Positions 3,139-59,390 of a stretch of DNA of 64,000 nt are shown in pieces (within the stretch, counting starts at the first letter, position 1; each line of letters begins with the position of its first letter). Below the pieces are notes generated by a model that ran no database searches, had not been told where the DNA came from, and saw only the letters and a list, made by a program, of their open reading frames with translations. Both the position numbers and the translations under genes were made by a program. Source of the DNA: Candidatus Omnitrophota bacterium (GTDB taxonomy: Bacteria; Omnitrophota; Gorgyraeia; JABMRG01; JAFGKX01); contig JAZDPX010000013.1 in assembly GCA_043797125.1 (NCBI GenBank), positions 73,180 through 137,179 of the forward strand, written 5' to 3'.

Positions 3139-3191
3139 CTCCTATCATTATCTTAGACAAACAAAACCGTCAATAAGTTCCTTTAGTTCTT

Positions 3192-3236
3192 CGGTAGCGG
3201 AGCCTTAAGGCTCCGCTACACTTGTGGATAACTCGC
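3192..3236 (+). repeat. Palindrome-only short copy of the MITE/REP-like family.
   Basis: gtagcggagccTTAAggctccgctac, with a compensatory gcc/ggc variant of the stem, followed by acttgtggataactc. Confidence 0.65.
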
Positions 3237-14844: not shown

Positions 14845-14940
14845 GGTAATAGTTCAGCTCTGGGAAGTTTTCACGACGTAGCGCAGGCTTAAGCCTGCGC
14901 TACGTCCGAGTCGAGATACTTACAATGACTGAACTGTTAC
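14845..14940 (+). repeat. Palindromic MITE/REP-like element, full-length reference copy.
   Basis: ggtaatagttcagctctgggaagttttcacgacgtagcgcaggcTTAAgcctgcgctacgtccgagtcgagatacttacaatgactgaactgttac. The ends are imperfect inverted repeats (gtaatagttcag... / ...ctgaactgttac) flanking a 15-bp perfect stem. Confidence 0.85.
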
Positions 14941-20750: not shown

Positions 20751-20784
20751 AATAGTAGGGCAGGCTTAAGCCTGCCCTACTATT
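20751..20784 (+). repeat. Palindrome-only short copy of the MITE/REP-like family.
   Basis: aatagtagggcaggcTTAAgcctgccctactatt. The stem variant gggcagg/cctgccc preserves pairing by compensatory change. Confidence 0.65.
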
Positions 20785-20810
20785 ACATAACATGTGCCTT
20801 ACGCTAATTA

Positions 20811-22013
20811 TTAAATCGGGCGTTCGTTTAACGGCTTAAATGTGTAGCCTGAATCAGCTCCCGGCAGAGAAGCCACGGGTTCACTTAACAAAAAGTCGCC
20901 TTTCTTGATCCACTTTTTCAGTGTGTTGGCAATCTCAACCGCCTTGCTGTAACTGGAAAGGCTTCCTGTCGGAATTTCTTTGCCCTGGAATTTAATCTTG
21001 CCGCTTCTAAGCTGAGCGTAATTTACCTCGCCAAGGCTTCCTGGTATTCCTTGCGGATACGCCTTGCTGTAATCAACTACCTGCGCCCACAGGTCTTCGT
21101 CTTTAACTGTTGTATATTGGCAGATTTCCTCGTTTAATATAGGTATAGGAATGCCTATGCCAACATTGAGAGTTACGCCATAACCCTGCATAGATACTCC
21201 GACAAGCCATTCCTGCTTCATTTGTTTAAGGTCACCTATAACTGCCAAGGTTCCTGCCGGCGCCTGGGGCACACCGTTGTCTTTGCGTTTTACCGAAGGG
21301 TTATGCTGCGTTCCGTGCCAGGCCACATAGCCTATTCCGCCGCCTAAGAATATCTTTGTGCCGATACCGATAGTTTTATAATACGGGTCATTTAAAAGAG
21401 GCGAAAGCTGGCCGGCGCTACAGTAATTGGCATTGCCCAATTTTGGCCTAAGTATTCCCATATACGTATAGATGACTTTATCCGACAAGTTAACCGCTAC
21501 GTTGTAATTCTGGTAAACATTTCTTGGATTAAAAAGCACTGCCTCGTTTAAATCCTTGATGTTTATCTTGGTCTTCAGTTCTTTGCGCGGATAGCAATCA
21601 GTGCCATATGCTGTAGCTGTCAGGACTAAATCTTTACCAGCTACCAAGTCTTCTATCACGTGGGCTCCGCCGTATTTGAATTCTCCCGGGAAAACTTTGT
21701 TTCTTGGATCGTCGTCGGGCATGGCGGTTGCGCCAACATAAACATCGACTGCGGCAAATCCCGCGTAAACAGGCACGTCATTAATATATGCCCTGCCTCC
21801 GCCGATTTTTGTTTTCGGTTTGCTGTGGCCTATGTTAAAATACGCACCTGATGAGCACATCGGGCCAAAGGTACCGGTGGTAACAACATCGACTTCCTTT
21901 GCCGCTTTAGCCGCGCCTTTTTTCTTAACAATGTCAATTATCTCTTCCGCGGTTACCACTACCGCATTTCCGCTTTTTATGCGTTCGTTAATTTCTGCTA
22001 TAGTTTTTGCCAT
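20811..22013 (-). CDS. DUF39/COG1900-like protein, putative sulfur-incorporating homocysteine biosynthesis enzyme (L-aspartate semialdehyde sulfurtransferase-like).
   Basis: 400 aa. N-terminus MAKTIAEINERIKSGNAVVVTAEEIIDIV...VDVVTTGTFGPM resembles COG1900 proteins. Genomic context with cysK and an Rrf2 regulator supports a sulfur-metabolism role. Confidence 0.45.
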   Translation of the reverse strand: MAKTIAEINERIKSGNAVVVTAEEIIDIVKKKGAAKAAKEVDVVTTGTFGPMCSSGAYFNIGHSKPKTKIGGGRAYINDVPVYAGFAAVDVYVGATAMPDDDPRNKVFPGEFKYGGAHVIEDLVAGKDLVLTATAYGTDCYPRKELKTKINIKDLNEAVLFNPRNVYQNYNVAVNLSDKVIYTYMGILRPKLGNANYCSAGQLSPLLNDPYYKTIGIGTKIFLGGGIGYVAWHGTQHNPSVKRKDNGVPQAPAGTLAVIGDLKQMKQEWLVGVSMQGYGVTLNVGIGIPIPILNEEICQYTTVKDEDLWAQVVDYSKAYPQGIPGSLGEVNYAQLRSGKIKFQGKEIPTGSLSSYSKAVEIANTLKKWIKKGDFLLSEPVASLPGADSGYTFKPLNERPI

Positions 22014-22034: not shown

Positions 22035-22955
22035 TTATTTAAACAGCCAAGTAGTTAAGTAGCGTTCGCCTGTATCAGGAAGTATAACAACGATTAATTT
22101 GCCTTTATTTTCTTTGCGCTTAGCTATTTCTACGGCCGCGTGCACTGCCGCGCCGCTTGATATACCCGCTAATATGCCTTCTTCTTTTGCCAGCCTTCTT
22201 GCCATTATGCCGGAATCTTCGTTACTAACCTGAATTATCTCGTCGATTAATTCCTTTTTTAAAACATCCGGCACAAACCCGGCGCCTATTCCCTGAATTT
22301 TATGCGCGCCCGGCTTTCCGCCTGAAAGAACAGGTGAATCTGTCGGCTCAACCGCAATTGCTTTAAATGACGGCTTTCTTTTTTTAATTACTTCTGCTAC
22401 GCCGGTGATTGTTCCGCCTGTGCCAACGCCGCTGATTAAAATATCTATTTTGCCGTCGGTATCTGCCCATATCTCCTGCGCTGTTGTCTCTCTGTGTATC
22501 TTAGGATTAGCGGGGTTTTTAAACTGCTGAGGCATAAATGAGTTTGGCGTTTCCTTAAGAAGCTCTTCTGCCCTTTTAACTGCGCCTGTCATTCCTTCCG
22601 CGCCCGGGGTAAGAACAAGCTCTGCGCCAAATACAGATAAAAGCTGCCTGCGCTCAATAGACATGGTATCTGGCATTGTTAAAATTAGACGGTAGCCTCT
22701 GGCAGCGCATACAAAGGCAAGGCCTATGCCTGTATTTCCGCTTGTCGGCTCAATTATTACAGTGCCTTTTTTAATCAGGCCTTTTTTTTCCGCGTCATCA
22801 ATCATTGAAACGCCTATTCTGTCTTTTACGCTGGACAGCGGGTTAAAGGATTCTAATTTTCCTACCAATGCCGCCTCAGATCCTTGGGCAATTTTATTTA
22901 ACCTCACCAAAGGCGTGTTGCCTACCAATTTGGTTATATCATCTGCTATCTTCAT
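22035..22955 (-). CDS. cysK: Cysteine synthase / O-acetylserine sulfhydrylase (PLP-dependent, CysK/CysM).
   Basis: 306 aa. [25 protein letters not shown]-lysine motif SVKDRIG, glycine loop [16 protein letters not shown]. Confidence 0.9.
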
Positions 22956-22990: not shown

Positions 22991-23090
22991 TCACAGATAA
23001 TCACAGATTAAAAGAAACAGACTATCGCAGATTTTTTAAAATATATCTGTGATCATCTTGTATCTTTTCATCTGCGATCATCTGTGTAAT
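22991..23090 (+). repeat. Repeat family B, copy 1 (~95 nt), built from periodic ATCTG(T/C)GAT(C/T) boxes. Lies in the cysK promoter region, 3' of the Rrf2 gene.
   Basis: tcacagataatcacagattaaaagaaacagactatcgcagatttt...atatctgtgatcatcttgtatcttttcatctgcgatcatctgtgtaa. About 85% identical to the reverse complement of 54076-54172. Confidence 0.75.
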
Positions 23091-23101
23091 AAATCTCATT
23101 T

Positions 23102-23545
23102 TCATATAACATACATATGCGGGGTTTTAAGTTTTTTCTTGTGCCTTTTAACCATTTCCTCTAAAGTTACTGATTCTAAACTTTTTAATATTTTATCGCC
23201 TAATTCTTTCCATATATCGCGCGTTACGCAAATATCTATTCTATCACAAACAGCGGGCGAATCAATACATTCAACAGGTGACAATGAACCTTCAAGCGTC
23301 AAAATTATTTCCTTGAGCGTTATTTTGGATGGCGCCTTTGCCAGCGTGTAGCCGCCATGCGCGCCCCTGCTTGATTTTACAAGCCCAATAGCTTTAAGCG
23401 GCGGCACAAGATGCTCTAAATATCCTTCGGAAATATTCTGTCTTTTGGCAATATCTTTCAGCAGAACATTGCCGTTGCCATAATTAAGCGCCAGTTCCAG
23501 CATTAATCTTGCGCCATATCTTCCTTTTGTTGAAAGCCTCATCAT
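23102..23545 (-). CDS. Rrf2-family transcriptional regulator (IscR/CymR-like, three-Cys cluster ligand set).
   Basis: 147 aa. N-terminal wHTH MMRLSTKGRYGARLMLELALNYGNGNVLLKDIAKRQNISEGYLEHLV. Cys triad CIDSPAVCDRIDIC. Confidence 0.85.
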   Translation of the reverse strand: MMRLSTKGRYGARLMLELALNYGNGNVLLKDIAKRQNISEGYLEHLVPPLKAIGLVKSSRGAHGGYTLAKAPSKITLKEIILTLEGSLSPVECIDSPAVCDRIDICVTRDIWKELGDKILKSLESVTLEEMVKRHKKKLKTPHMYVI

Positions 23546-23614
23546 AAATTATGATTTCTTAACCTATTAACCTTATCATATTGGTAGGGATTATATACAA
23601 AAAAATATTTCCTG

Positions 23615-25021
23615 TCAAGGTTTTTCTTCTGTTTGCGGCGGCTGTTGCGGAGGTTCTTGCGGGGCAGCCTCTTCTTTTTTAAGATCAAGGTTTGTAAGAT
23701 TTTCAAATATATTGCTAAAAATCCCTTTTCTAATCGAAAATACGGCGTCTTTGCCGCGCAATCTTGCGATGTATGTTTCCCCTTTTTTAACAACATCGAT
23801 TGCTAAAGTGGTTGCATCCTTGTTTTCTATCTCGAACGAATACGCCAGCATATCCTTGGATGCATCCGCATAGTTCTCGTTAAAAAGAATCTTCTCAACC
23901 TCAAAACCTTTTAATTTATCGATATAGCTTGTATTTTTCTGTACCAGGGCTTCATCAAGTTTATAAACTTCGTTTTCCGCGCTAACAGATACGGATTTCA
24001 AGTTATCTTTGTTTATCTTCAGCGGGTTATCTATAAAAAATTTGGATGTATCTATATCCAGCTTATCAATTGCGTAGCTGCGCAGGATATAGGCGTATCC
24101 GTCTTGAGTCTTGGCGTATCTATCCTTGCCGTCTTTTTCGGTTGCGTTGCCCAAAATAATCTCTATCGGCTTTTCCTGGCCTTCCAGCACAACCTTAAGG
24201 TACGGTTTTTCAAAGCCCCGGCCTTCGGCGCTTTCTAGGGCAATGGCCTCTTGCGCCTTTGCCTCTGTCATGGCCTTAAGCGCATTTTTTATTTTTTCCG
24301 AATCAATGTTAAATAAGGGCTCTTGCCCGACCGCCACCCAGCGCTTAAGGTTTCTTTCCGGATCGAGTTCTTTCTTAAGATCCGCGGTTGCTATTTCAAC
24401 ATCCTGCTGCCTGCGGATTATCTTTATTGATTCTATTTTTTCGGTATCAAATTTGGCAACAGTCAAATCAATCCACGTGTCCGCATTAATGGTGGCGTCT
24501 TTGGGTTCTGTGTAAATATCAAGAAATGAATAAACATCCTTATCCGTGATATAAACTTCTTCCGAGCTTCCTATTCTCAGGAATGAGCTTCCCTCGCCGG
24601 GTTTTTCCATGCCTATAAAAAACACCTGGTATGGTTTTGAATCCTTATCAAGTATAGATATCGAAAACGCCTCGTTATCAGCAATCTTGTAATCTGAAAA
24701 GAGGTTTTTCGAATTAGAGCGCATTTCTCCCTGCAATGACGCAAGATCTGTTATAAATTTTTCTATTCTTTCGCTCTGCGCCATCATATTACCTTTGGAA
24801 GGAAGGCGCCATTGAGCGTCTTTTTTCTCAAGCGTTAAAAGGTTCTCGTTTTCGCCTTTTTTAATCTGGATTCCGTAAATTAAAGAAGGATCGATGGTAA
24901 TCTGAAGGCCCTTGTACTCCTGTTGCGCTAATTCGGGTTTCATAAAAATCTTTTTGGCGGATAATATCGCCAAAAGGGTTATTAGTATAACTCCTAAAAA
25001 TATTAAATGTTTGGTCTTCAT
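23615..25021 (-). CDS. Membrane-anchored hypothetical protein (DUF4340-like partner of GldG-type ABC systems).
   Basis: 468 aa. N-terminal TM MKTKHLIFLGVILITLLAILSA. Pro/Gln-rich C-terminus. Positioned directly after the ABC-2/GldG fusion, as is typical for DUF4340. Confidence 0.35.
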   Translation of the reverse strand: MKTKHLIFLGVILITLLAILSAKKIFMKPELAQQEYKGLQITIDPSLIYGIQIKKGENENLLTLEKKDAQWRLPSKGNMMAQSERIEKFITDLASLQGEMRSNSKNLFSDYKIADNEAFSISILDKDSKPYQVFFIGMEKPGEGSSFLRIGSSEEVYITDKDVYSFLDIYTEPKDATINADTWIDLTVAKFDTEKIESIKIIRRQQDVEIATADLKKELDPERNLKRWVAVGQEPLFNIDSEKIKNALKAMTEAKAQEAIALESAEGRGFEKPYLKVVLEGQEKPIEIILGNATEKDGKDRYAKTQDGYAYILRSYAIDKLDIDTSKFFIDNPLKINKDNLKSVSVSAENEVYKLDEALVQKNTSYIDKLKGFEVEKILFNENYADASKDMLAYSFEIENKDATTLAIDVVKKGETYIARLRGKDAVFSIRKGIFSNIFENLTNLDLKKEEAAPQEPPQQPPQTEEKP

Positions 25022-34959: not shown

Positions 34960-35054
34960 GTAACAGTTCGGCCATTGTAAGCATCTCGACTCGGACGTAG
35001 CGGAGGCTTAAGCCTCCGCTACGTAGGGAGAACTTCCCGGAGCTGAACCATTAC
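34960..35054 (-). repeat. Palindromic MITE/REP-like element, full-length copy in inverted orientation.
   Basis: gtaacagttcggccattgtaagcatctcgactcggacgtagcggaggcTTAAgcctccgctacgtagggagaacttcccggagctgaaccattac is the reverse complement of the 14845-14940 architecture. Confidence 0.85.
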
Positions 35055-47364: not shown

Positions 47365-47455
47365 GGGTCAACTCTTGAAAGGTCTTTAGACGTAGCGGAG
47401 GCTTAAGCCTCCGCTACGTCTAAGTCGAGGTACTTATAATGACTGAACTACTACC
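47365..47455 (+). repeat. Palindromic MITE/REP-like element, full-length copy with degenerate left end.
   Basis: gggtcaactcttgaaaggtctttagacgtagcggaggcTTAAgcctccgctacgtctaagtcgaggtacttataatgactgaactactacc. Confidence 0.8.
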
Positions 47456-52138: not shown

Positions 52139-54064
52139 TTATTTTAAAATAGGCAGGTCCAGGGGGGAGATATAATCGCCAAACTGCTTTTGGGCTTTAA
52201 GCAAGCGTTTACGCTGCTGTTTGAGCACCTTAAATAGGGCCTGCGGCGCGTTAAGAACGTTTTCTTTATGAAAATTCTCTACGCGGTCAATCTTGGATAT
52301 GTTTTCAGGAACGCGAATTGTAAATTGCTTTATATAATCTTCTTTTGCATAATCTTTCCGTAAAACTTGTTTAAAAAGATCGCGCAAATCATCATATACC
52401 GGTATAAGGCCTGTCGGGGTTTCTATCGCGGTTACGTCATTATGAATGCGCAGCTCCATCCATTTCACCCACGCGTGCTTGTCCCTGACGCCGTTTAAGA
52501 ATTTACCTTCTTTATCTCTCAAGAAATAATTGACGCCGAAGATAATGGGGGATTTTTTAAGCCTTTTGCCGAATTCCAGGTTATTTTGCACATACTTGCC
52601 TAAGGAAATTGCAACAAAGTCCTGTATGCTCATCAGGTTTATCTCAGGAACCCCTTCTTTGCCTATGGTTGCAAAGGTTGTCTCCGTTTCCAAAGAAGCG
52701 CCGTAAGCAATAATGCCGTGCTCCCAGTCAAAACTTTGTTGAACCGGCACATAGCTTTTTGCGTCCCTTCCGCCGTACATTATGCCGGACAATTCCACGC
52801 CCGTCGGGTTATTTAGCTGCTGGTCAACGCTATCAAGCGCCTGCAGCGCGACAGTATAGCGCGCATTTTTGTGGGCAAGGGGAATTTTATCGCCTTTTGC
52901 ATCTGTTTTGCCTTCATGCCATGCGCCTGAAAAATTTACGCCTTTTTTTGAAATATCGCCGTGCATCCCCAACCAGTACGGCTTGCCGTCCGCTACTAAA
53001 ATATTGGAGAAGATAACCTCTCCGGGGGTGGTAAGCACTTTATAAATAGCTGGGTCGTCAACCGGATTTACATTTTGAATAATTCCGAAGATTCCGGCTT
53101 CCGCATTCACTGCCCGCGCCACGCCGTTAATATTACGAAAATATGCAATGTCATCGCCGACTATTGTCTCGCCGGGAAGCATGGCGGTGGAGGTCTTGCC
53201 GCAGGCGCTTGGAAAAGCGCCGGCTAAATAGGTTTTTCTGTAATTTGGCCCGTGCACTCCCATTAAAAGCATATGCTCTGCGAGCCAGCCTTCCCTGTCT
53301 GCCTTGCGAATGGTAAGCCGTAGCGCAAGTTTCTTAAGGCCAATGGTGTTGCCGGCATATTGGGTATTTACGCTATAAATAGCATCTTCAATATAATCAA
53401 TGTAAATGCGTTTCTTATCCGCATCCGCACTAACCATATCTTCGTTCATTCTGCCTGCTGAATGCAATATACAAAATGGTTTTGATTCTGCCGTTTTTTT
53501 GGTAAACATGTTGTAGGCCGGCCTGTAAAGAAGGGACTTGCTATGAGCAACATACCACGAATCAGTACACTGCACGCAGGGAATACTAAATACAGAATCA
53601 GCAGGCCCCAGCGAAAGAAAACGCACAATCATGGTGCGGCCTTTCATGCTGGCCTTAAGAAGGCCCTTTATCTCTTTTAATCCCTCTTCTCTTTCTATCT
53701 GATTAAGGCTTTTGCTCAGGGTATCATTTTTTGGCACAAGGTATTTAGTAACTTCCCTGTCCCTGCCTTGGTCATCAATGCCGTCGAAGTGGTAAGTATG
53801 TCCCTGTGTTGCCAGAGGTTTTTCTTCTTTGTTTGAAATGGCCTGCTGGCGCACAAATGCTATATCCGCGTAAGAATCGCCGCAAATAAATATATCTTTT
53901 GGGCAACAAAGCTGGGCTGATTCCGCGATAAACCGCACAACGCTTTCAGCGCTTATTGCGGACAGCTTCTTGTAATTGGCTTCGTCTAATTTAGGTCTTA
54001 ATATTTTAGAATAATTTTCAAGCATTGCGTACATCCCATCCTTTGCGATACTGTAAAAAACCAT
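52139..54064 (-). CDS. pckG: Phosphoenolpyruvate carboxykinase (GTP).
   Basis: 641 aa. Kinase-1a FPSACGKTSTAML. EGWLAEHMLLMG. Overall length typical of GTP-PEPCK. Confidence 0.85.
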   Translation of the reverse strand: MVFYSIAKDGMYAMLENYSKILRPKLDEANYKKLSAISAESVVRFIAESAQLCCPKDIFICGDSYADIAFVRQQAISNKEEKPLATQGHTYHFDGIDDQGRDREVTKYLVPKNDTLSKSLNQIEREEGLKEIKGLLKASMKGRTMIVRFLSLGPADSVFSIPCVQCTDSWYVAHSKSLLYRPAYNMFTKKTAESKPFCILHSAGRMNEDMVSADADKKRIYIDYIEDAIYSVNTQYAGNTIGLKKLALRLTIRKADREGWLAEHMLLMGVHGPNYRKTYLAGAFPSACGKTSTAMLPGETIVGDDIAYFRNINGVARAVNAEAGIFGIIQNVNPVDDPAIYKVLTTPGEVIFSNILVADGKPYWLGMHGDISKKGVNFSGAWHEGKTDAKGDKIPLAHKNARYTVALQALDSVDQQLNNPTGVELSGIMYGGRDAKSYVPVQQSFDWEHGIIAYGASLETETTFATIGKEGVPEINLMSIQDFVAISLGKYVQNNLEFGKRLKKSPIIFGVNYFLRDKEGKFLNGVRDKHAWVKWMELRIHNDVTAIETPTGLIPVYDDLRDLFKQVLRKDYAKEDYIKQFTIRVPENISKIDRVENFHKENVLNAPQALFKVLKQQRKRLLKAQKQFGDYISPLDLPILK

Positions 54065-54075
54065 GCTGACATTTA

Positions 54076-54172
54076 TGTATACGCAGATTAGCGCAGATGA
54101 AAAGATGCAAGATGATCACAGATATAAAATCTGCGATCATCTGTATCTTCTAATCTGTGATTATCTGTGCAA
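54076..54172 (-). repeat. Repeat family B, copy 2 (~95 nt). Inverted relative to copy 1. Lies in the pckG promoter region.
   Basis: acgcagattagcgcagatgaaaagatgcaagatgatcacagatataaaatctgcgatcatctgtatcttctaatctgtgattatctgtgc. Its reverse complement aligns at about 85% identity to 22991-23090. Confidence 0.75.
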
Positions 54173-54224
54173 AAAGTCAGCAAGATTTTTGGCGTTATCT
54201 CCTTTGCGCCCCTCGCTAAATAAT

Positions 54225-55403
54225 CTATTCCTCCGGCAGCAATATCTTTGTACCAAGTATAAGCTTGTCGGGATTTTTGATATTTTCTTTGTTAAGATTG
54301 TAAATCTCTTTCCAGCGGTTACCGTCTCCTAATTGTTTCTTTGCGATTTTCCATAAGGAATCGTCTTTGGCAATAACATATGTGCGTTTTACAGAAGCGG
54401 GCGATTCCTCATCTTGCTGCTGCTGTTCAATGGGTATCATTATAACCGTACCTGCCTCTATCGCGTCCGGGTCTTTAATATTCTCCTTATTAAATTCGTA
54501 AAGATATTTCCATCTACGCTCTGCGCCTAATTGCACCTTGGCTATTTTTTTAAGCGTATCGCCCTCTTTTACAACATATTCTTTTGTTGAAACTTTAATT
54601 TCTGATTCAACATCTAAATTTTCCTCTACGGTATATTCTCCGTCGCCGATAGGCGTCGCGCCCATCTCTTTAAGTTCGCCTTCGTACGGAATCATTATCT
54701 CCTCTACCTCCGCTATCATAAATTGCGCGTTTCTGTCTTTCTGCATGCCTACAAGGTCGGTTATGTGGGCGACTGCGTCTAATTTTCCGCGGCTGACTAT
54801 CTTGATACGGCCTTGTGTGATTCCGTTTTCCAGCATAAAATTTTTCACCGTTTCTCCGCGGCGCTTGCCCAGCTTCTCGTTGTACGCTTCGGTGCCGCGT
54901 ATGTCGCAATTGCCTGTTATCAGAATGCTTGTCTCGGGGTTTCTTTTTAAGGTGCCTACCGCGCCTGATAAGATTTCCGAGGCATCGTCGCGCAAATCGG
55001 CTTTATCATAGTCAAAATAGATTTTTACGTTTTTCATTATTTTCTTTATAAGCAAGGAGGGCCGAAGCTCCTGCTGTTTTGGGGCAGGGAGCTCTTCTTC
55101 CTTGTAATCAAAAATGATTTTATTCACGTAAATATAGCCTCTGTTGCCCCAGGGGCGCATTGTCCCCGGGTTTGTAGGCCACCACCAATAGCCGCTTCGT
55201 TGGTCGTCTTTCACCGGAGCTGGTGTTGCATCTGTAGGCCACCACGTAAACTGCTTTTGCTGCTGGTCGGTTTGTTTTTGCCGGCTTGCCTCTTTATCAA
55301 CCAGCAAATTCTCCCATAACGCAAAGGCATCGGATGCAGATAATAATATTATAGTTATAAGCAGGTATCTAAGAGCCGCCTTAAAATTTAGTTTTTTTGC
55401 CAT
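54225..55403 (-). CDS. OmpA-family peptidoglycan-binding protein with two C-terminal LysM domains.
   Basis: 392 aa. Signal peptide. OmpA_C motif ILITGNCDIRGTEAYNEKLGKRRGETV. Two LysM repeats, YVVKEGDTLKKIAK... and YVIAKDDSLWKIAK.... Confidence 0.8.
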   Translation of the reverse strand: MAKKLNFKAALRYLLITIILLSASDAFALWENLLVDKEASRQKQTDQQQKQFTWWPTDATPAPVKDDQRSGYWWWPTNPGTMRPWGNRGYIYVNKIIFDYKEEELPAPKQQELRPSLLIKKIMKNVKIYFDYDKADLRDDASEILSGAVGTLKRNPETSILITGNCDIRGTEAYNEKLGKRRGETVKNFMLENGITQGRIKIVSRGKLDAVAHITDLVGMQKDRNAQFMIAEVEEIMIPYEGELKEMGATPIGDGEYTVEENLDVESEIKVSTKEYVVKEGDTLKKIAKVQLGAERRWKYLYEFNKENIKDPDAIEAGTVIMIPIEQQQQDEESPASVKRTYVIAKDDSLWKIAKKQLGDGNRWKEIYNLNKENIKNPDKLILGTKILLPEE

Positions 55404-55475: not shown

Positions 55476-55509
55476 AGATGTAGCGCAGGCTTAAGCCTGC
55501 GCTACATCT
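55476..55509 (+). repeat. Palindrome-only short copy of the MITE/REP-like family.
   Basis: agatgtagcgcaggcTTAAgcctgcgctacatct. Confidence 0.65.
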
Positions 55510-55551
55510 ATTACAATCTTATAGGTAAGCGAAAGACATATTAACATATAT

Positions 55552-56826: not shown

Positions 56827-56911
56827 GTAATTAAAAGCCCTTCCGACGTAGCGCAGGCTTAAGCCTGCGCTACGTCTAAGTCGAGATGCTTATAATGGCT
56901 GAGCTATTAAC
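56826..56911 (+). repeat. Palindromic MITE/REP-like element, full-length copy.
   Basis: tgtaattaaaagcccttccgacgtagcgcaggcTTAAgcctgcgctacgtctaagtcgagatgcttataatggctgagctattaac. Confidence 0.8.
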
Positions 56912-57016: not shown

Positions 57017-57184
57017 TTAGCGGCCTTCGTTCTTGCGCTTTGAAAAGCAATCCTTGCAATACACAGGACGATCCCCTCTAGGTTTGAAAGGTACGTCGCA
57101 TTCCTTATTGCAGTCTGAACAGGTTGCCTTGAACATTTCCCGTGGACCCCTGTCAAATCCACCATTACCCTTTTGATATCCCAT
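57017..57184 (-). CDS. Unannotated small CxxC-x17-CxxC zinc-ribbon protein, 55 aa, below the ORF-track size cutoff.
   Basis: Minus-strand ORF with RBS ggagga.
MGYQKGNGGFDRGPREMFKATCSDCNKECDVPFKPRGDRPVYCKDCFSKRKNEGR*.
The core is about 80% nucleotide-identical to the 3' part of 58899..59390. Confidence 0.65.
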   Translation of the reverse strand: MGYQKGNGGFDRGPREMFKATCSDCNKECDVPFKPRGDRPVYCKDCFSKRKNEGR

Positions 57185-58898: not shown

Positions 58899-59390
58899 TT
58901 ATTTTCTGCGTCGGGGGCTTGGCTGCCTTTTTTTATAAGGCCTTTTGCCTGCGCTATTTCTTTGCTTGGGGAAATGGCTCGCCGGCATAAAAGTTGTTTC
59001 TTGCGGTTTATTATTATGGTCTTCTTTAAACGGGTTTGCGCCTTTTCGTTTTGAAAAGCATTCCTTGCAATACACGGGGCGGTCCCCGCTGGGCTTAAAA
59101 GGAACTTCGCATTCTTTGTTACAGTCTGAACAAATAACCTTGGTAAAACTTCTGTCCCTAAAGCCGTCTTCTCTGGGCCTTCTATCATCATGACGAGGCC
59201 GGTCAAAACGCTGGAAAGGCTTTGGAAAGCGCTGGCCTTCGGACTTATTTTTAAAAGACTGGCTTGCCAATGCATCGATTTTGTTTTCAATGGATGCAAG
59301 CTGCTGCTGCATCTTGCTAATCAGGTCCATTATATCCGGCTCGCTTTGCGCCTGTGTTAAGGAACCTCTGTGCCTAAAATTTTTTTTCAT
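58899..59390 (-). CDS. CxxC-x17-CxxC zinc-ribbon protein, 163 aa: coiled-coil N-terminus, Arg/Asp-rich linker and basic C-terminal tail.
   Basis: CSDCNKECEVPFKPSGDRPVYCKECFSKRK with exactly 17 residues between the two CxxC pairs. C-terminus KRPYKKRQPSPRRRK. Confidence 0.7.
   Translation of the reverse strand: MKKNFRHRGSLTQAQSEPDIMDLISKMQQQLASIENKIDALASQSFKNKSEGQRFPKPFQRFDRPRHDDRRPREDGFRDRSFTKVICSDCNKECEVPFKPSGDRPVYCKECFSKRKGANPFKEDHNNKPQETTFMPASHFPKQRNSAGKRPYKKRQPSPRRRK

Follow-up and report, generated by a model that had tools for sequence, protein, structure and literature searches.

Why do two unrelated metabolic genes of one bacterium stand beside closely related stretches of evenly spaced, inverted repeats? 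The question is raised by 64,000 nucleotides from a Candidatus Omnitrophota bacterium (GCA_043797125.1, contig JAZDPX010000013.1, positions 73,180 to 137,179 of the forward strand; this whole 64-kb stretch is called the window here). In it, one copy of a repeat, family B, lies between the gene for an Rrf2-family regulator and a cysK-like gene, and a second lies next to pckG, which encodes a GTP-dependent phosphoenolpyruvate (PEP) carboxykinase. An earlier note on this DNA had proposed an operator shared by cysK and pckG, with a small dispersed repeat as its fallback. We find that family B is, with near certainty, a dispersed repeat homologous to the arms that surround GxxExxY nuclease genes, and not an operator. 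Our reading, to which we give a probability of roughly 0.6, is that family B is a gene-less derivative of a small GxxExxY-nuclease element, resembling a miniature inverted-repeat transposable element (MITE), and that the copies in the window are passengers.

Anatomy of the repeat

The family-B unit consists of the 7-mer CACAGAT, or ATCTGTG on the other strand, and a variable 3-nt linker. Each window copy has eight of these boxes, some of them degenerate, in four pairs with 10 bp between the members of a pair; four boxes are forward and four inverted, so that the whole forms an imperfect palindrome. The two segments had already been recognised as related reverse complements, and this stands, with cores at 22992-23086 and 54082-54169 whose identity is 88% across 50 nt and 91% across 47 nt. 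They had also been described as four or five copies of a 10-11-bp unit, an account which overlooked the inverted halves. One central loop is 7 nt longer than the other. The 16-mer ATCTGYGATYATCTGT, with three mismatches or fewer allowed, matches the window 10 times (1.22 expected), a number reached in 0 of 100 shuffles; eight of these ten matches fall in the two copies, as do all seven exact matches to ATCTGYGAT (0.81 expected).

Copy 1 (22992..23086, plus strand, nhmmer score 111) carries no gene, as is the case for all copies called solo here, and reads left arm first, which is the polarity of the gene-carrying elements. Its left arm (22992..23032) holds the boxes CACAGAT at 22992-98 and 23002-08, a degenerate AACAGAC at 23016-22 and CGCAGAT at 23026-32. 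The left-arm spacer TAAAAGAA is the counterpart of a ribosome-binding-site-like spacer in gene-carrying elements, and the ATG that starts the nuclease gene in other elements is here mutated (AGACTATC). A central loop of 12 nt (23033..23044) marks the site at which gene-carrying relatives have a GxxExxY gene of about 380 nt, and is followed by the right arm (23045..23086), with ATCTGTG at 23045-51, a degenerate ATCTTGT at 23055-61, ATCTGCG at 23070-76 and ATCTGTG at 23080-86.

Copy 2 (54082..54169, minus strand, nhmmer score 117) is likewise gene-less and is inverted with respect to copy 1. In the minus-strand reading its right arm occupies 54082..54123, where the plus-strand boxes are CGCAGAT at 54082-88 and 54092-98, a degenerate GCAAGAT at 54107-13 and CACAGAT at 54117-23. 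The central loop is 5 nt long (54124..54128), and the left arm, again in the minus-strand reading, spans 54129..54169, with plus-strand boxes ATCTGCG at 54129-35, a degenerate ATCTGTA at 54139-45 and ATCTGTG at 54153-59 and 54163-69.

A family dispersed through intergenic spacers

An exact-pattern scan of a species-representative genome collection returned at least 97 stretches, which form a first set of loci (numbered L) selected by the element's own pattern; the window's own genome is not among them. Most come from Candidatus Omnitrophota metagenome-assembled genomes (MAGs), many loci often being found in the same MAG, such as at least 14 in JBBIOC01 and at least 8 in MHHD01; the 64 kb of the window has two copies. 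A few come from MAGs labelled Edwardsbacteria, Chitinophagales, Planctomycetia, Thermodesulfovibrionia and others, where the labels are the submitters' own and could reflect mis-binned contigs. When the listed scan loci and the window were searched with a profile of the two window copies, 117 distinct family-B copies were recovered, 80 of them full length, and many lie at contig ends. The phasing at one helical turn that had been noticed in the window is borne out over all collected sequences, in which boxes on the same strand are spaced by 10 bp in 416 cases, against 67 at 9 bp, 84 at 24 bp, 39 at 25 bp and 2 at 7 bp.

Family B is an intergenic repeat. With open reading frame (ORF) calls that are crude and count 88% of the sequence as ORF, 109 of 117 copies lie outside ORFs. 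Eighty-six are found between genes on the same strand, 3 between convergent and 4 between divergent genes, in keeping with the background proportions of spacer types. Where the flanking genes share a strand, the copy begins a median of 8 nt past the upstream stop codon and ends a median of 18 nt ahead of the next start, and its orientation relative to the flanking genes is 29:26.

The family marks no regulon. The 86 genes whose starts face a copy represent 147 different Pfam families, of which the commonest has four members and none is enriched, and the only PALP and PEPCK genes among them are the window's own. None of the three closest fetched pckG orthologues (76-79% amino acid identity) has a family-B copy upstream, and their neighbours differ. 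A wider motif search had been set by the earlier note as the check on its proposal, and what that search returns is a scattered repeat; the fallback suggestion, a small dispersed repeat distinct from the window's other repeat family (family A), was correct.

Related arms around GxxExxY genes

The gap between the last forward and the first reverse box has a bimodal distribution, with values of 0-60 nt or 370-390 nt. L048 belongs to an Omnitrophota MAG in which at least 14 solo loci were seen; its arms stand 340 nt apart and enclose a frameshifted gene for a protein of about 120 amino acids (aa). L026 has an intact GxxExxY gene with boxes upstream and a full hairpin downstream, and the same arms adjoin a GxxExxY gene cut by the contig end in L080 and a 5'-truncated one in L012. 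The protein scores far above the cut-offs of both family models, with 110.9 and 134.9 bits against TIGR04256 (cut-off 35) and 111 and 131 bits against PF13366 (cut-off 22). The full element is about 0.5 kb long, and comprises a forward CACAGAT array with a 10-bp period, a gene for a PD-(D/E)XK protein of about 125 aa (GxxExxY, PF13366/TIGR04256), and an inverted array. Joined end to end, the arms of the gene-carrying loci L111 and L048 give a colinear alignment with both window copies, and copy 2 is about 88-90% identical to the L111 arms, as read off the alignment.

Because the first loci had been selected by the repeat, loci were also fetched independently, by the protein alone. Eighty metagenome loci were obtained in this way, and the 65 with at least 150 nt on both sides of the gene were analysed. 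The 170 nt around the 5' end of the gene contain 163 forward and 2 reverse boxes over these 65 loci, and the 180 nt around its 3' end contain 167 reverse and 23 forward boxes, the latter stemming from extra hairpins directly after the gene. In control stretches 400-570 nt away, 16 kb of sequence yields 11 boxes. Boxes oriented as expected, at least two per side, are seen at 22 of 24 close homologues and at 42 of the 65 loci overall.

The start codon of the gene is embedded in the innermost pair of left boxes (cAGATGATC..., giving M-I-A/T-D), and its stop codon is at or in the innermost right box. At other homologues the boxes are variants, CACGGAT, CGCGGAT, CGCTGAT or CACAAGAT, which are inverted across the gene in the same manner. 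The gene is not always central, since in L026, L098 and L100 it lies between forward boxes and is followed by a full hairpin. An intact element in an Omnitrophica MAG sits between acpP and a FabA-like gene, and other contexts are a radical-SAM gene beside hemE, leuC-leuD, and a MoxR-like gene beside a DUF58-like gene, the genes of these other contexts being identified by reading sequences and translations.

Several further features of these loci were seen. At L090 (6879-7330) a GxxExxY homologue of 42% identity is flanked by inverted GATTACAGTGAT / ATCACTGTAATC rather than by CACAGAT, which suggests that protein-box specificities differ. An upstream host ORF at L026 (5199-6311) reads through the box array and acquires the tail KRRRLSQMITDRTQISTDKKRR. 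Many 'proteins' of 250-900 aa in the library (P0121-P0240) have an embedded GxxExxY domain, or a tandem pair of them; gene calls that run on through an array are the probable cause, and some may be real fusions. At L149 (1358-1990), a leuC-leuD junction with a GxxExxY element, the leuC end, the leuD start and part of the array appear duplicated.

The GxxExxY protein

PF13366 is entered with the function 'Unknown' in a survey of PD-(D/E)XK proteins (PMC3424549). The GxxExxY family is very large, with 9,120 clusters at 50% identity and E <= 0.001. Among 53 diverse members D74 and K86 are invariant and E84 is present in at least 90%. An AlphaFold2 (AF2) model from a diverse alignment reached a predicted local distance difference test (pLDDT) score of 88.6; a first model, for which the alignment was shallow, scored only 54.6 and was set aside. 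The best fold matches of the model in the PDB are weak and are to generic PD-(D/E)XK nucleases (lambda-exonuclease-like, Cas4 and RecB-type), with the homing endonuclease I-Bth0305I also among the weak matches, and there is no sequence match to the nuclease in the PDB. Judged by its catalytic residues and predicted fold, the GxxExxY protein looks like an active nuclease.

Proteins 82-88% identical to each other occur in MAGs labelled Nitrospirota and Omnitrophota, in at least eight different gene contexts, which points to transfer. Neither copies of the element nor close GxxExxY relatives were found in IMG/VR viral contigs.

Origin and spread of the gene-less copies

In the reading that we favour, a full element would have lost its gene, leaving the arms with a loop of 5-12 nt as in the window copies, and the gene-less copies would then have spread as units in the fashion of MITEs. 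A GxxExxY nuclease provided in trans would bind to the boxes, and copies would settle where they are tolerated, in short spacers between co-directional genes. Copy 1 would be a passenger inside the Rrf2-cysK operon and copy 2 one between the OmpA/LysM-domain gene and pckG, with a side effect of the long imperfect hairpin, in transcript or DNA, as the sole likely effect on host genes. Family B is probably a selfish element. For its origin by gene deletion together with mobilisation in trans by the nuclease, the odds seem to us about even.

Evidence for spread comes from the loops: separate loci, within a MAG or in different MAGs, can have an identical loop (ATTTTAAGACGTT in L007 and L062, AGATTT in L025 and L031), and at four loci of JBBIOC01 the loop has zero length; L007 and L074 share flanks that reach beyond the hairpin. 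The sharing of loops across loci and MAGs suggests that solo copies multiply as units. Some orthologous gene pairs, compared between distant species only, have a copy at one locus and none at the other; these are L067 and L078, with an empty spacer of 10 nt, and L057 and L146. No direct repeats flank the copies, and the 3 nt outside the last box are partly complementary and not duplicated.

A number of points weigh against this reading. The genes flanking the occupied and empty spacers share only about 50-70% protein identity, so that insertion cannot be separated from deletion there, and no target-site duplication was found in the 80 copies searched or at the L067/L078 and L057/L146 pairs. 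Deletion intermediates are few, comprising the frameshift in L048, the truncation in L012 and a possible 3' remnant in the loop of L027, and a nucleotide profile of the gene body found no gene remnants when compared with all other solo loci. The 64-kb window contains no GxxExxY gene. We know of no PD-(D/E)XK protein of such size that acts as a sole transposase. Finally, the first set of loci was chosen by the pattern of the element itself, ORF calls were crude, and MAG labels may reflect mis-binning.

The main rival explanation, which we consider unlikely, reverses the order of events. The inverted arrays would be the primary element, the GxxExxY gene would be an invader akin to a homing endonuclease that cuts the palindrome near its centre and is copied in, and the copies in the window would be empty targets. 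Some homing endonucleases do have the PD-(D/E)XK fold, and the appearance of I-Bth0305I among the weak fold matches fits this view, as does the placement of the gene always between inverted arrays. Solo copies exceed gene-carrying ones by about 20 to 1 in the first locus set, most without any gene remnant, and the lack of target duplication is what homing predicts. Several of these observations are accommodated by either explanation.

The centre of the palindrome can evidently be occupied by other DNA. At L020 (1697-2017) the family-B loop holds a different, nested palindromic element, with short repeats of the AATAACCAA type around a GC-rich hairpin, which implies that the centre can accept insertions. 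This nested insertion and the remnant-free solo copies lean towards homing. The evidence leans the other way where genes are truncated or frameshifted between the arms (L012, L048), where the start codon and the ribosome-binding-site-like spacer of the gene are built into the left arm, and where solo subfamilies have spread. Homing also has to account for genes lying off-centre between forward boxes in L026, L098 and L100, and a separate mechanism would still be needed to place the arrays at hundreds of sites. A gene-less derivative of a nuclease element remains the preferred reading.

Conservation of boxes rather than base pairing

Within one copy, arm-to-arm complementarity is 92-95% in the boxes and 44% in the linkers. 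When arms are swapped between copies linker complementarity is 51%, so that a linker's own partner is no better than a foreign one, and the three bases outside the last box are modestly complementary (48% vs 39%). Folds in the sense and antisense direction relative to the host gene are equally stable (-40.3 vs -39.9 kcal/mol, p = 0.59; 162 vs 129 G-U pairs), and no fold asymmetry was found relative to the element's own polarity. In variant copies all boxes are altered together, to CGCGGAT, CGCTGAT, CACGGAT or CACAAGAT, or to GATTACAGTGAT in L090.

A selected hairpin was considered as the main constraint and rejected, since the linkers are not complementary. Because linkers are unpaired and the two strands fold alike, the palindrome is best seen as a consequence of inverted arrays of one recognised 7-mer, and the joint shift of the boxes agrees with recognition by a protein that differs in specificity between elements. 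The earlier suggestion of a phased array bound by a protein therefore survives in part, as boxes are conserved where linkers are not and look like a binding array; going by sequence, we infer that the binding partner is the encoded GxxExxY nuclease and not Rrf2.

Could family B act in RNA instead? A long hairpin in polycistronic transcripts might serve as an RNase III site, mRNA stabiliser, attenuator or terminator, roles that have been proposed for repetitive extragenic palindromic (REP) sequences, bacterial interspersed mosaic elements (BIMEs) and Correia elements, and the link to the nuclease would then be secondary. Copies do lie inside operons, directly between cistrons, and the hairpins are very stable. 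As RNA, both window copies fold at -39 to -45 kcal/mol with z = -7.4 to -8.9, copy 1 at -38.8 kcal/mol on the plus strand and -44.2 on the minus strand (z about -8.5 and -8.9), and copy 2 at -45.4 and -41.3 kcal/mol, respectively. The inner stem of copy 2 followed by TGCATCTTTT fits a simple terminator pattern on the gene strand, but with 1 found against 0.5 expected the match is within chance. Orientation to transcription is random, sense folds are no better than antisense ones, and the pairing of linkers is not maintained. No Rfam 15 family matches the window at gathering thresholds, and in E-value mode only sub-threshold models of eukaryotic miRNA precursors appear, which are generic hairpin matches. 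An RNA-level function as the primary role is improbable, and somewhat more so than homing.

Comparison with known systems

Family B works like a MITE or a REP sequence but fails defining features of both, and is neither a classical MITE nor a REP. Like a MITE with its parent insertion sequence, it is small (cores of 88-95 nt) and non-coding, has inverted ends whose boxes are 92-95% complementary, is present as many dispersed intergenic copies per genome with subfamilies within a genome, and has a longer partner element in which the same ends surround a single gene. The partner gene differs from that of a MITE, as it encodes a PD-(D/E)XK protein of about 125 aa, which matches only PF13366 and TIGR04256, and no recognised transposase. 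The ends are 7-mer arrays with a 10-bp period rather than simple terminal repeats, and target-site duplication is absent; the mobility of family B is putative.

REP sequences and BIMEs, with their REP-associated tyrosine transposases (RAYTs; IS200/IS605-like, Y1), are also extragenic imperfect palindromes that fill operon spacers at high copy number and have a repeat-flanked single-gene partner. Family B is longer, at about 95 nt against 20-40 nt for REP, and has neither a GTAG nor a CGTC tag. The partner of family B is a PD-(D/E)XK protein whereas that of REP is an HUH/Y1 protein, and it is the boxes that are conserved, not the stem.

Free-standing homing endonuclease genes, such as those of the PD-(D/E)XK enzymes I-Ssp6803I and I-Bth0305I, resemble the GxxExxY genes in being small nuclease genes between intact host genes, with a patchy distribution across phyla that suggests horizontal transfer. 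Unlike them, the GxxExxY gene lies between multi-box inverted arrays at many different sites, gene-less copies are far commoner, and its product is a predicted nuclease, to judge by fold and conserved residues.

Cyanobacterial short tandemly repeated repetitive (STRR) sequences are comparable intergenic heptamer repeats. The TAACTGA heptamer arrays of Beggiatoaceae, Cyanobacteria and Bacteroidetes are intergenic, follow one another head-to-tail every 7 bp and lie upstream of genes mostly in a single orientation, and no nuclease gene is reported with them (PMC4679880). Like the TAACTGA and STRR arrays, family B consists of arrays of one particular 7-mer in spacers near start codons, with a patchy occurrence across phyla and no known spreading mechanism. 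It differs in its 10-bp period (416 cases against 2 at 7 bp), its inverted arms and its balanced orientation (29:26). Correia elements, enterobacterial repetitive intergenic consensus (ERIC) sequences and repeat units of pneumococcus (RUP) are likewise hairpin-forming intergenic repeats, about 100-150 nt long, that are co-transcribed and able to affect mRNA processing, but they have no sequence relation to family B and none is tied to a GxxExxY gene. An effect of family B on RNA finds no support in any strand asymmetry. Searches by family names and by 17-mer sequences found no published description of the family-B/GxxExxY arrangement, although many papers in subscription journals lay outside the literature covered and a prior description is possible.

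Implications for the GxxExxY family

The results give a very large protein family of unlisted function a concrete and testable context, with its genes between inverted phased 7-mer arrays inside operons of core genes (hemE, leuCD, acpP-fabZ and others). Among the repeats of Omnitrophota genomes the gene-less derivatives form a major class, and they cause breaks in metagenome assemblies. A wider proposal, which we make tentatively and with the odds somewhat against it, is that GxxExxY proteins are the enzymes of a new class of very small mobile elements, each a gene of about 125 aa for a PD-(D/E)XK protein between inverted phased 7-mer arrays that co-vary with the protein. Such elements would invade operon spacers in many phyla without target duplication and spawn gene-less families such as family B. 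If the nuclease does mobilise the arrays, a mechanism of transposition or homing would be built on a minimal PD-(D/E)XK enzyme, and the box-protein pairs (CACAGAT, CACGGAT, CGCTGAT and GATTACAGTGAT) could represent a natural set of sequence-specific DNA binders or cutters.

Gene context of the two copies

The neighbouring genes are those described previously, and domain matches agree. All four genes that flank the two copies are on the minus strand. The Rrf2-family regulator gene (23102-23545; PF02082, E = 1.7e-36) ends with its stop codon 15 nt from copy 1, and the gene for a cysK-like pyridoxal phosphate (PLP) enzyme of the PALP family (22035-22955; PF00291, E = 1.3e-73) starts 36 nt from it on the other side, with a GGAG ribosome-binding site between. 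An HcyBio/DUF39 gene (20811-22013, minus strand) lies downstream of the cysK-like gene. A sigma70-like promoter, TTGACA, 17 nt and TATAAT, is found upstream of the Rrf2 gene at 23618-23590 on the minus strand, a consensus match read by eye, and this site (23590-23618) overlaps the stop codon of the preceding DUF4340 gene. It is likely, to judge from its sequence, to be the promoter of an Rrf2-cysK-HcyBio operon. Because this promoter-like site precedes Rrf2, copy 1 appears to lie inside a probable Rrf2-cysK operon and not in its promoter.

Copy 2 stands between pckG (52139-54064, minus strand; PEPCK_GTP, PF00821 and PF17297) and an OmpA/LysM-domain gene (54225-55403, minus strand), the stop codon of which is 55 nt from the copy. 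The pckG ORF is 641 aa from its first ATG, compared with 624-628 aa in the closest homologues. Translation probably begins 13-17 codons further in, and the gap between copy 2 and the start codon would then be about 55-70 nt instead of 17 nt. A Candidatus Omnitrophota MAG encodes a protein 100% identical to the pckG product, whose best relatives likewise belong to Omnitrophota. In another Omnitrophota MAG (L021, 1149-1260) an orthologue of the OmpA/LysM gene, at 67% nucleotide identity, likewise precedes a family-B copy, here shorter and truncated in the right arm, and the gene downstream differs and is not pckG (compare window 54170-54225).

Placement 'in the promoters' of cysK and pckG is not supported for either copy, each of which lies between same-strand genes, and simple scans found no promoter-like sites inside either. 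That the adjacent Rrf2 protein or another transcription factor co-regulates cysK and pckG through a shared operator or iteron array, as the 10-bp phasing and the abutment of copy 1 on the Rrf2 gene might suggest, is extremely improbable, being contradicted by a distribution over more than 100 unrelated intergenic spacers in dozens of MAGs, random orientation with 3 copies between convergent genes, neighbours with no functional pattern, pckG orthologues without a copy, and the position of copy 1 downstream of Rrf2 within an operon whose likely promoter lies upstream. For the window this removes a false regulatory lead, as cysK and pckG share no operator. The likely control region of Rrf2 is upstream of the Rrf2 gene, and any genuine Rrf2 operator is more likely to be found at 23546-23590 than in family B.

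Other repeats in the window

Family A is a perfect or near-perfect palindrome of 32-34 nt, GACGTAGCGCAGGCTTAAGCCTGCGCTACGTC, with a GTAG tag and nine copies in 64 kb (1291-1324, 2397-2430, 3191-3224, 14875-14908, 20752-20785, 34994-35027, 47389-47422, 55477-55510 and 56845-56878). Five of these are within a larger repeat unit of about 100 nt, at 1258, 14842, 34957 (inverted), 47356 and 56812. Family A resembles the true, GTAG-tagged REP elements (compare PMC3733652). The window also has a perfect 47-nt direct repeat, GAAATCCCTCGCTTTCATCAGGATTTCGTCCCGAGCAAATGCGAGGG, at 2488-2534 and 2537-2583 with 2 nt between, and a 99-nt direct repeat of 81% identity in a region of small ORFs, the copies of which (57033-57131 and 59044-59142) are 2 kb apart.

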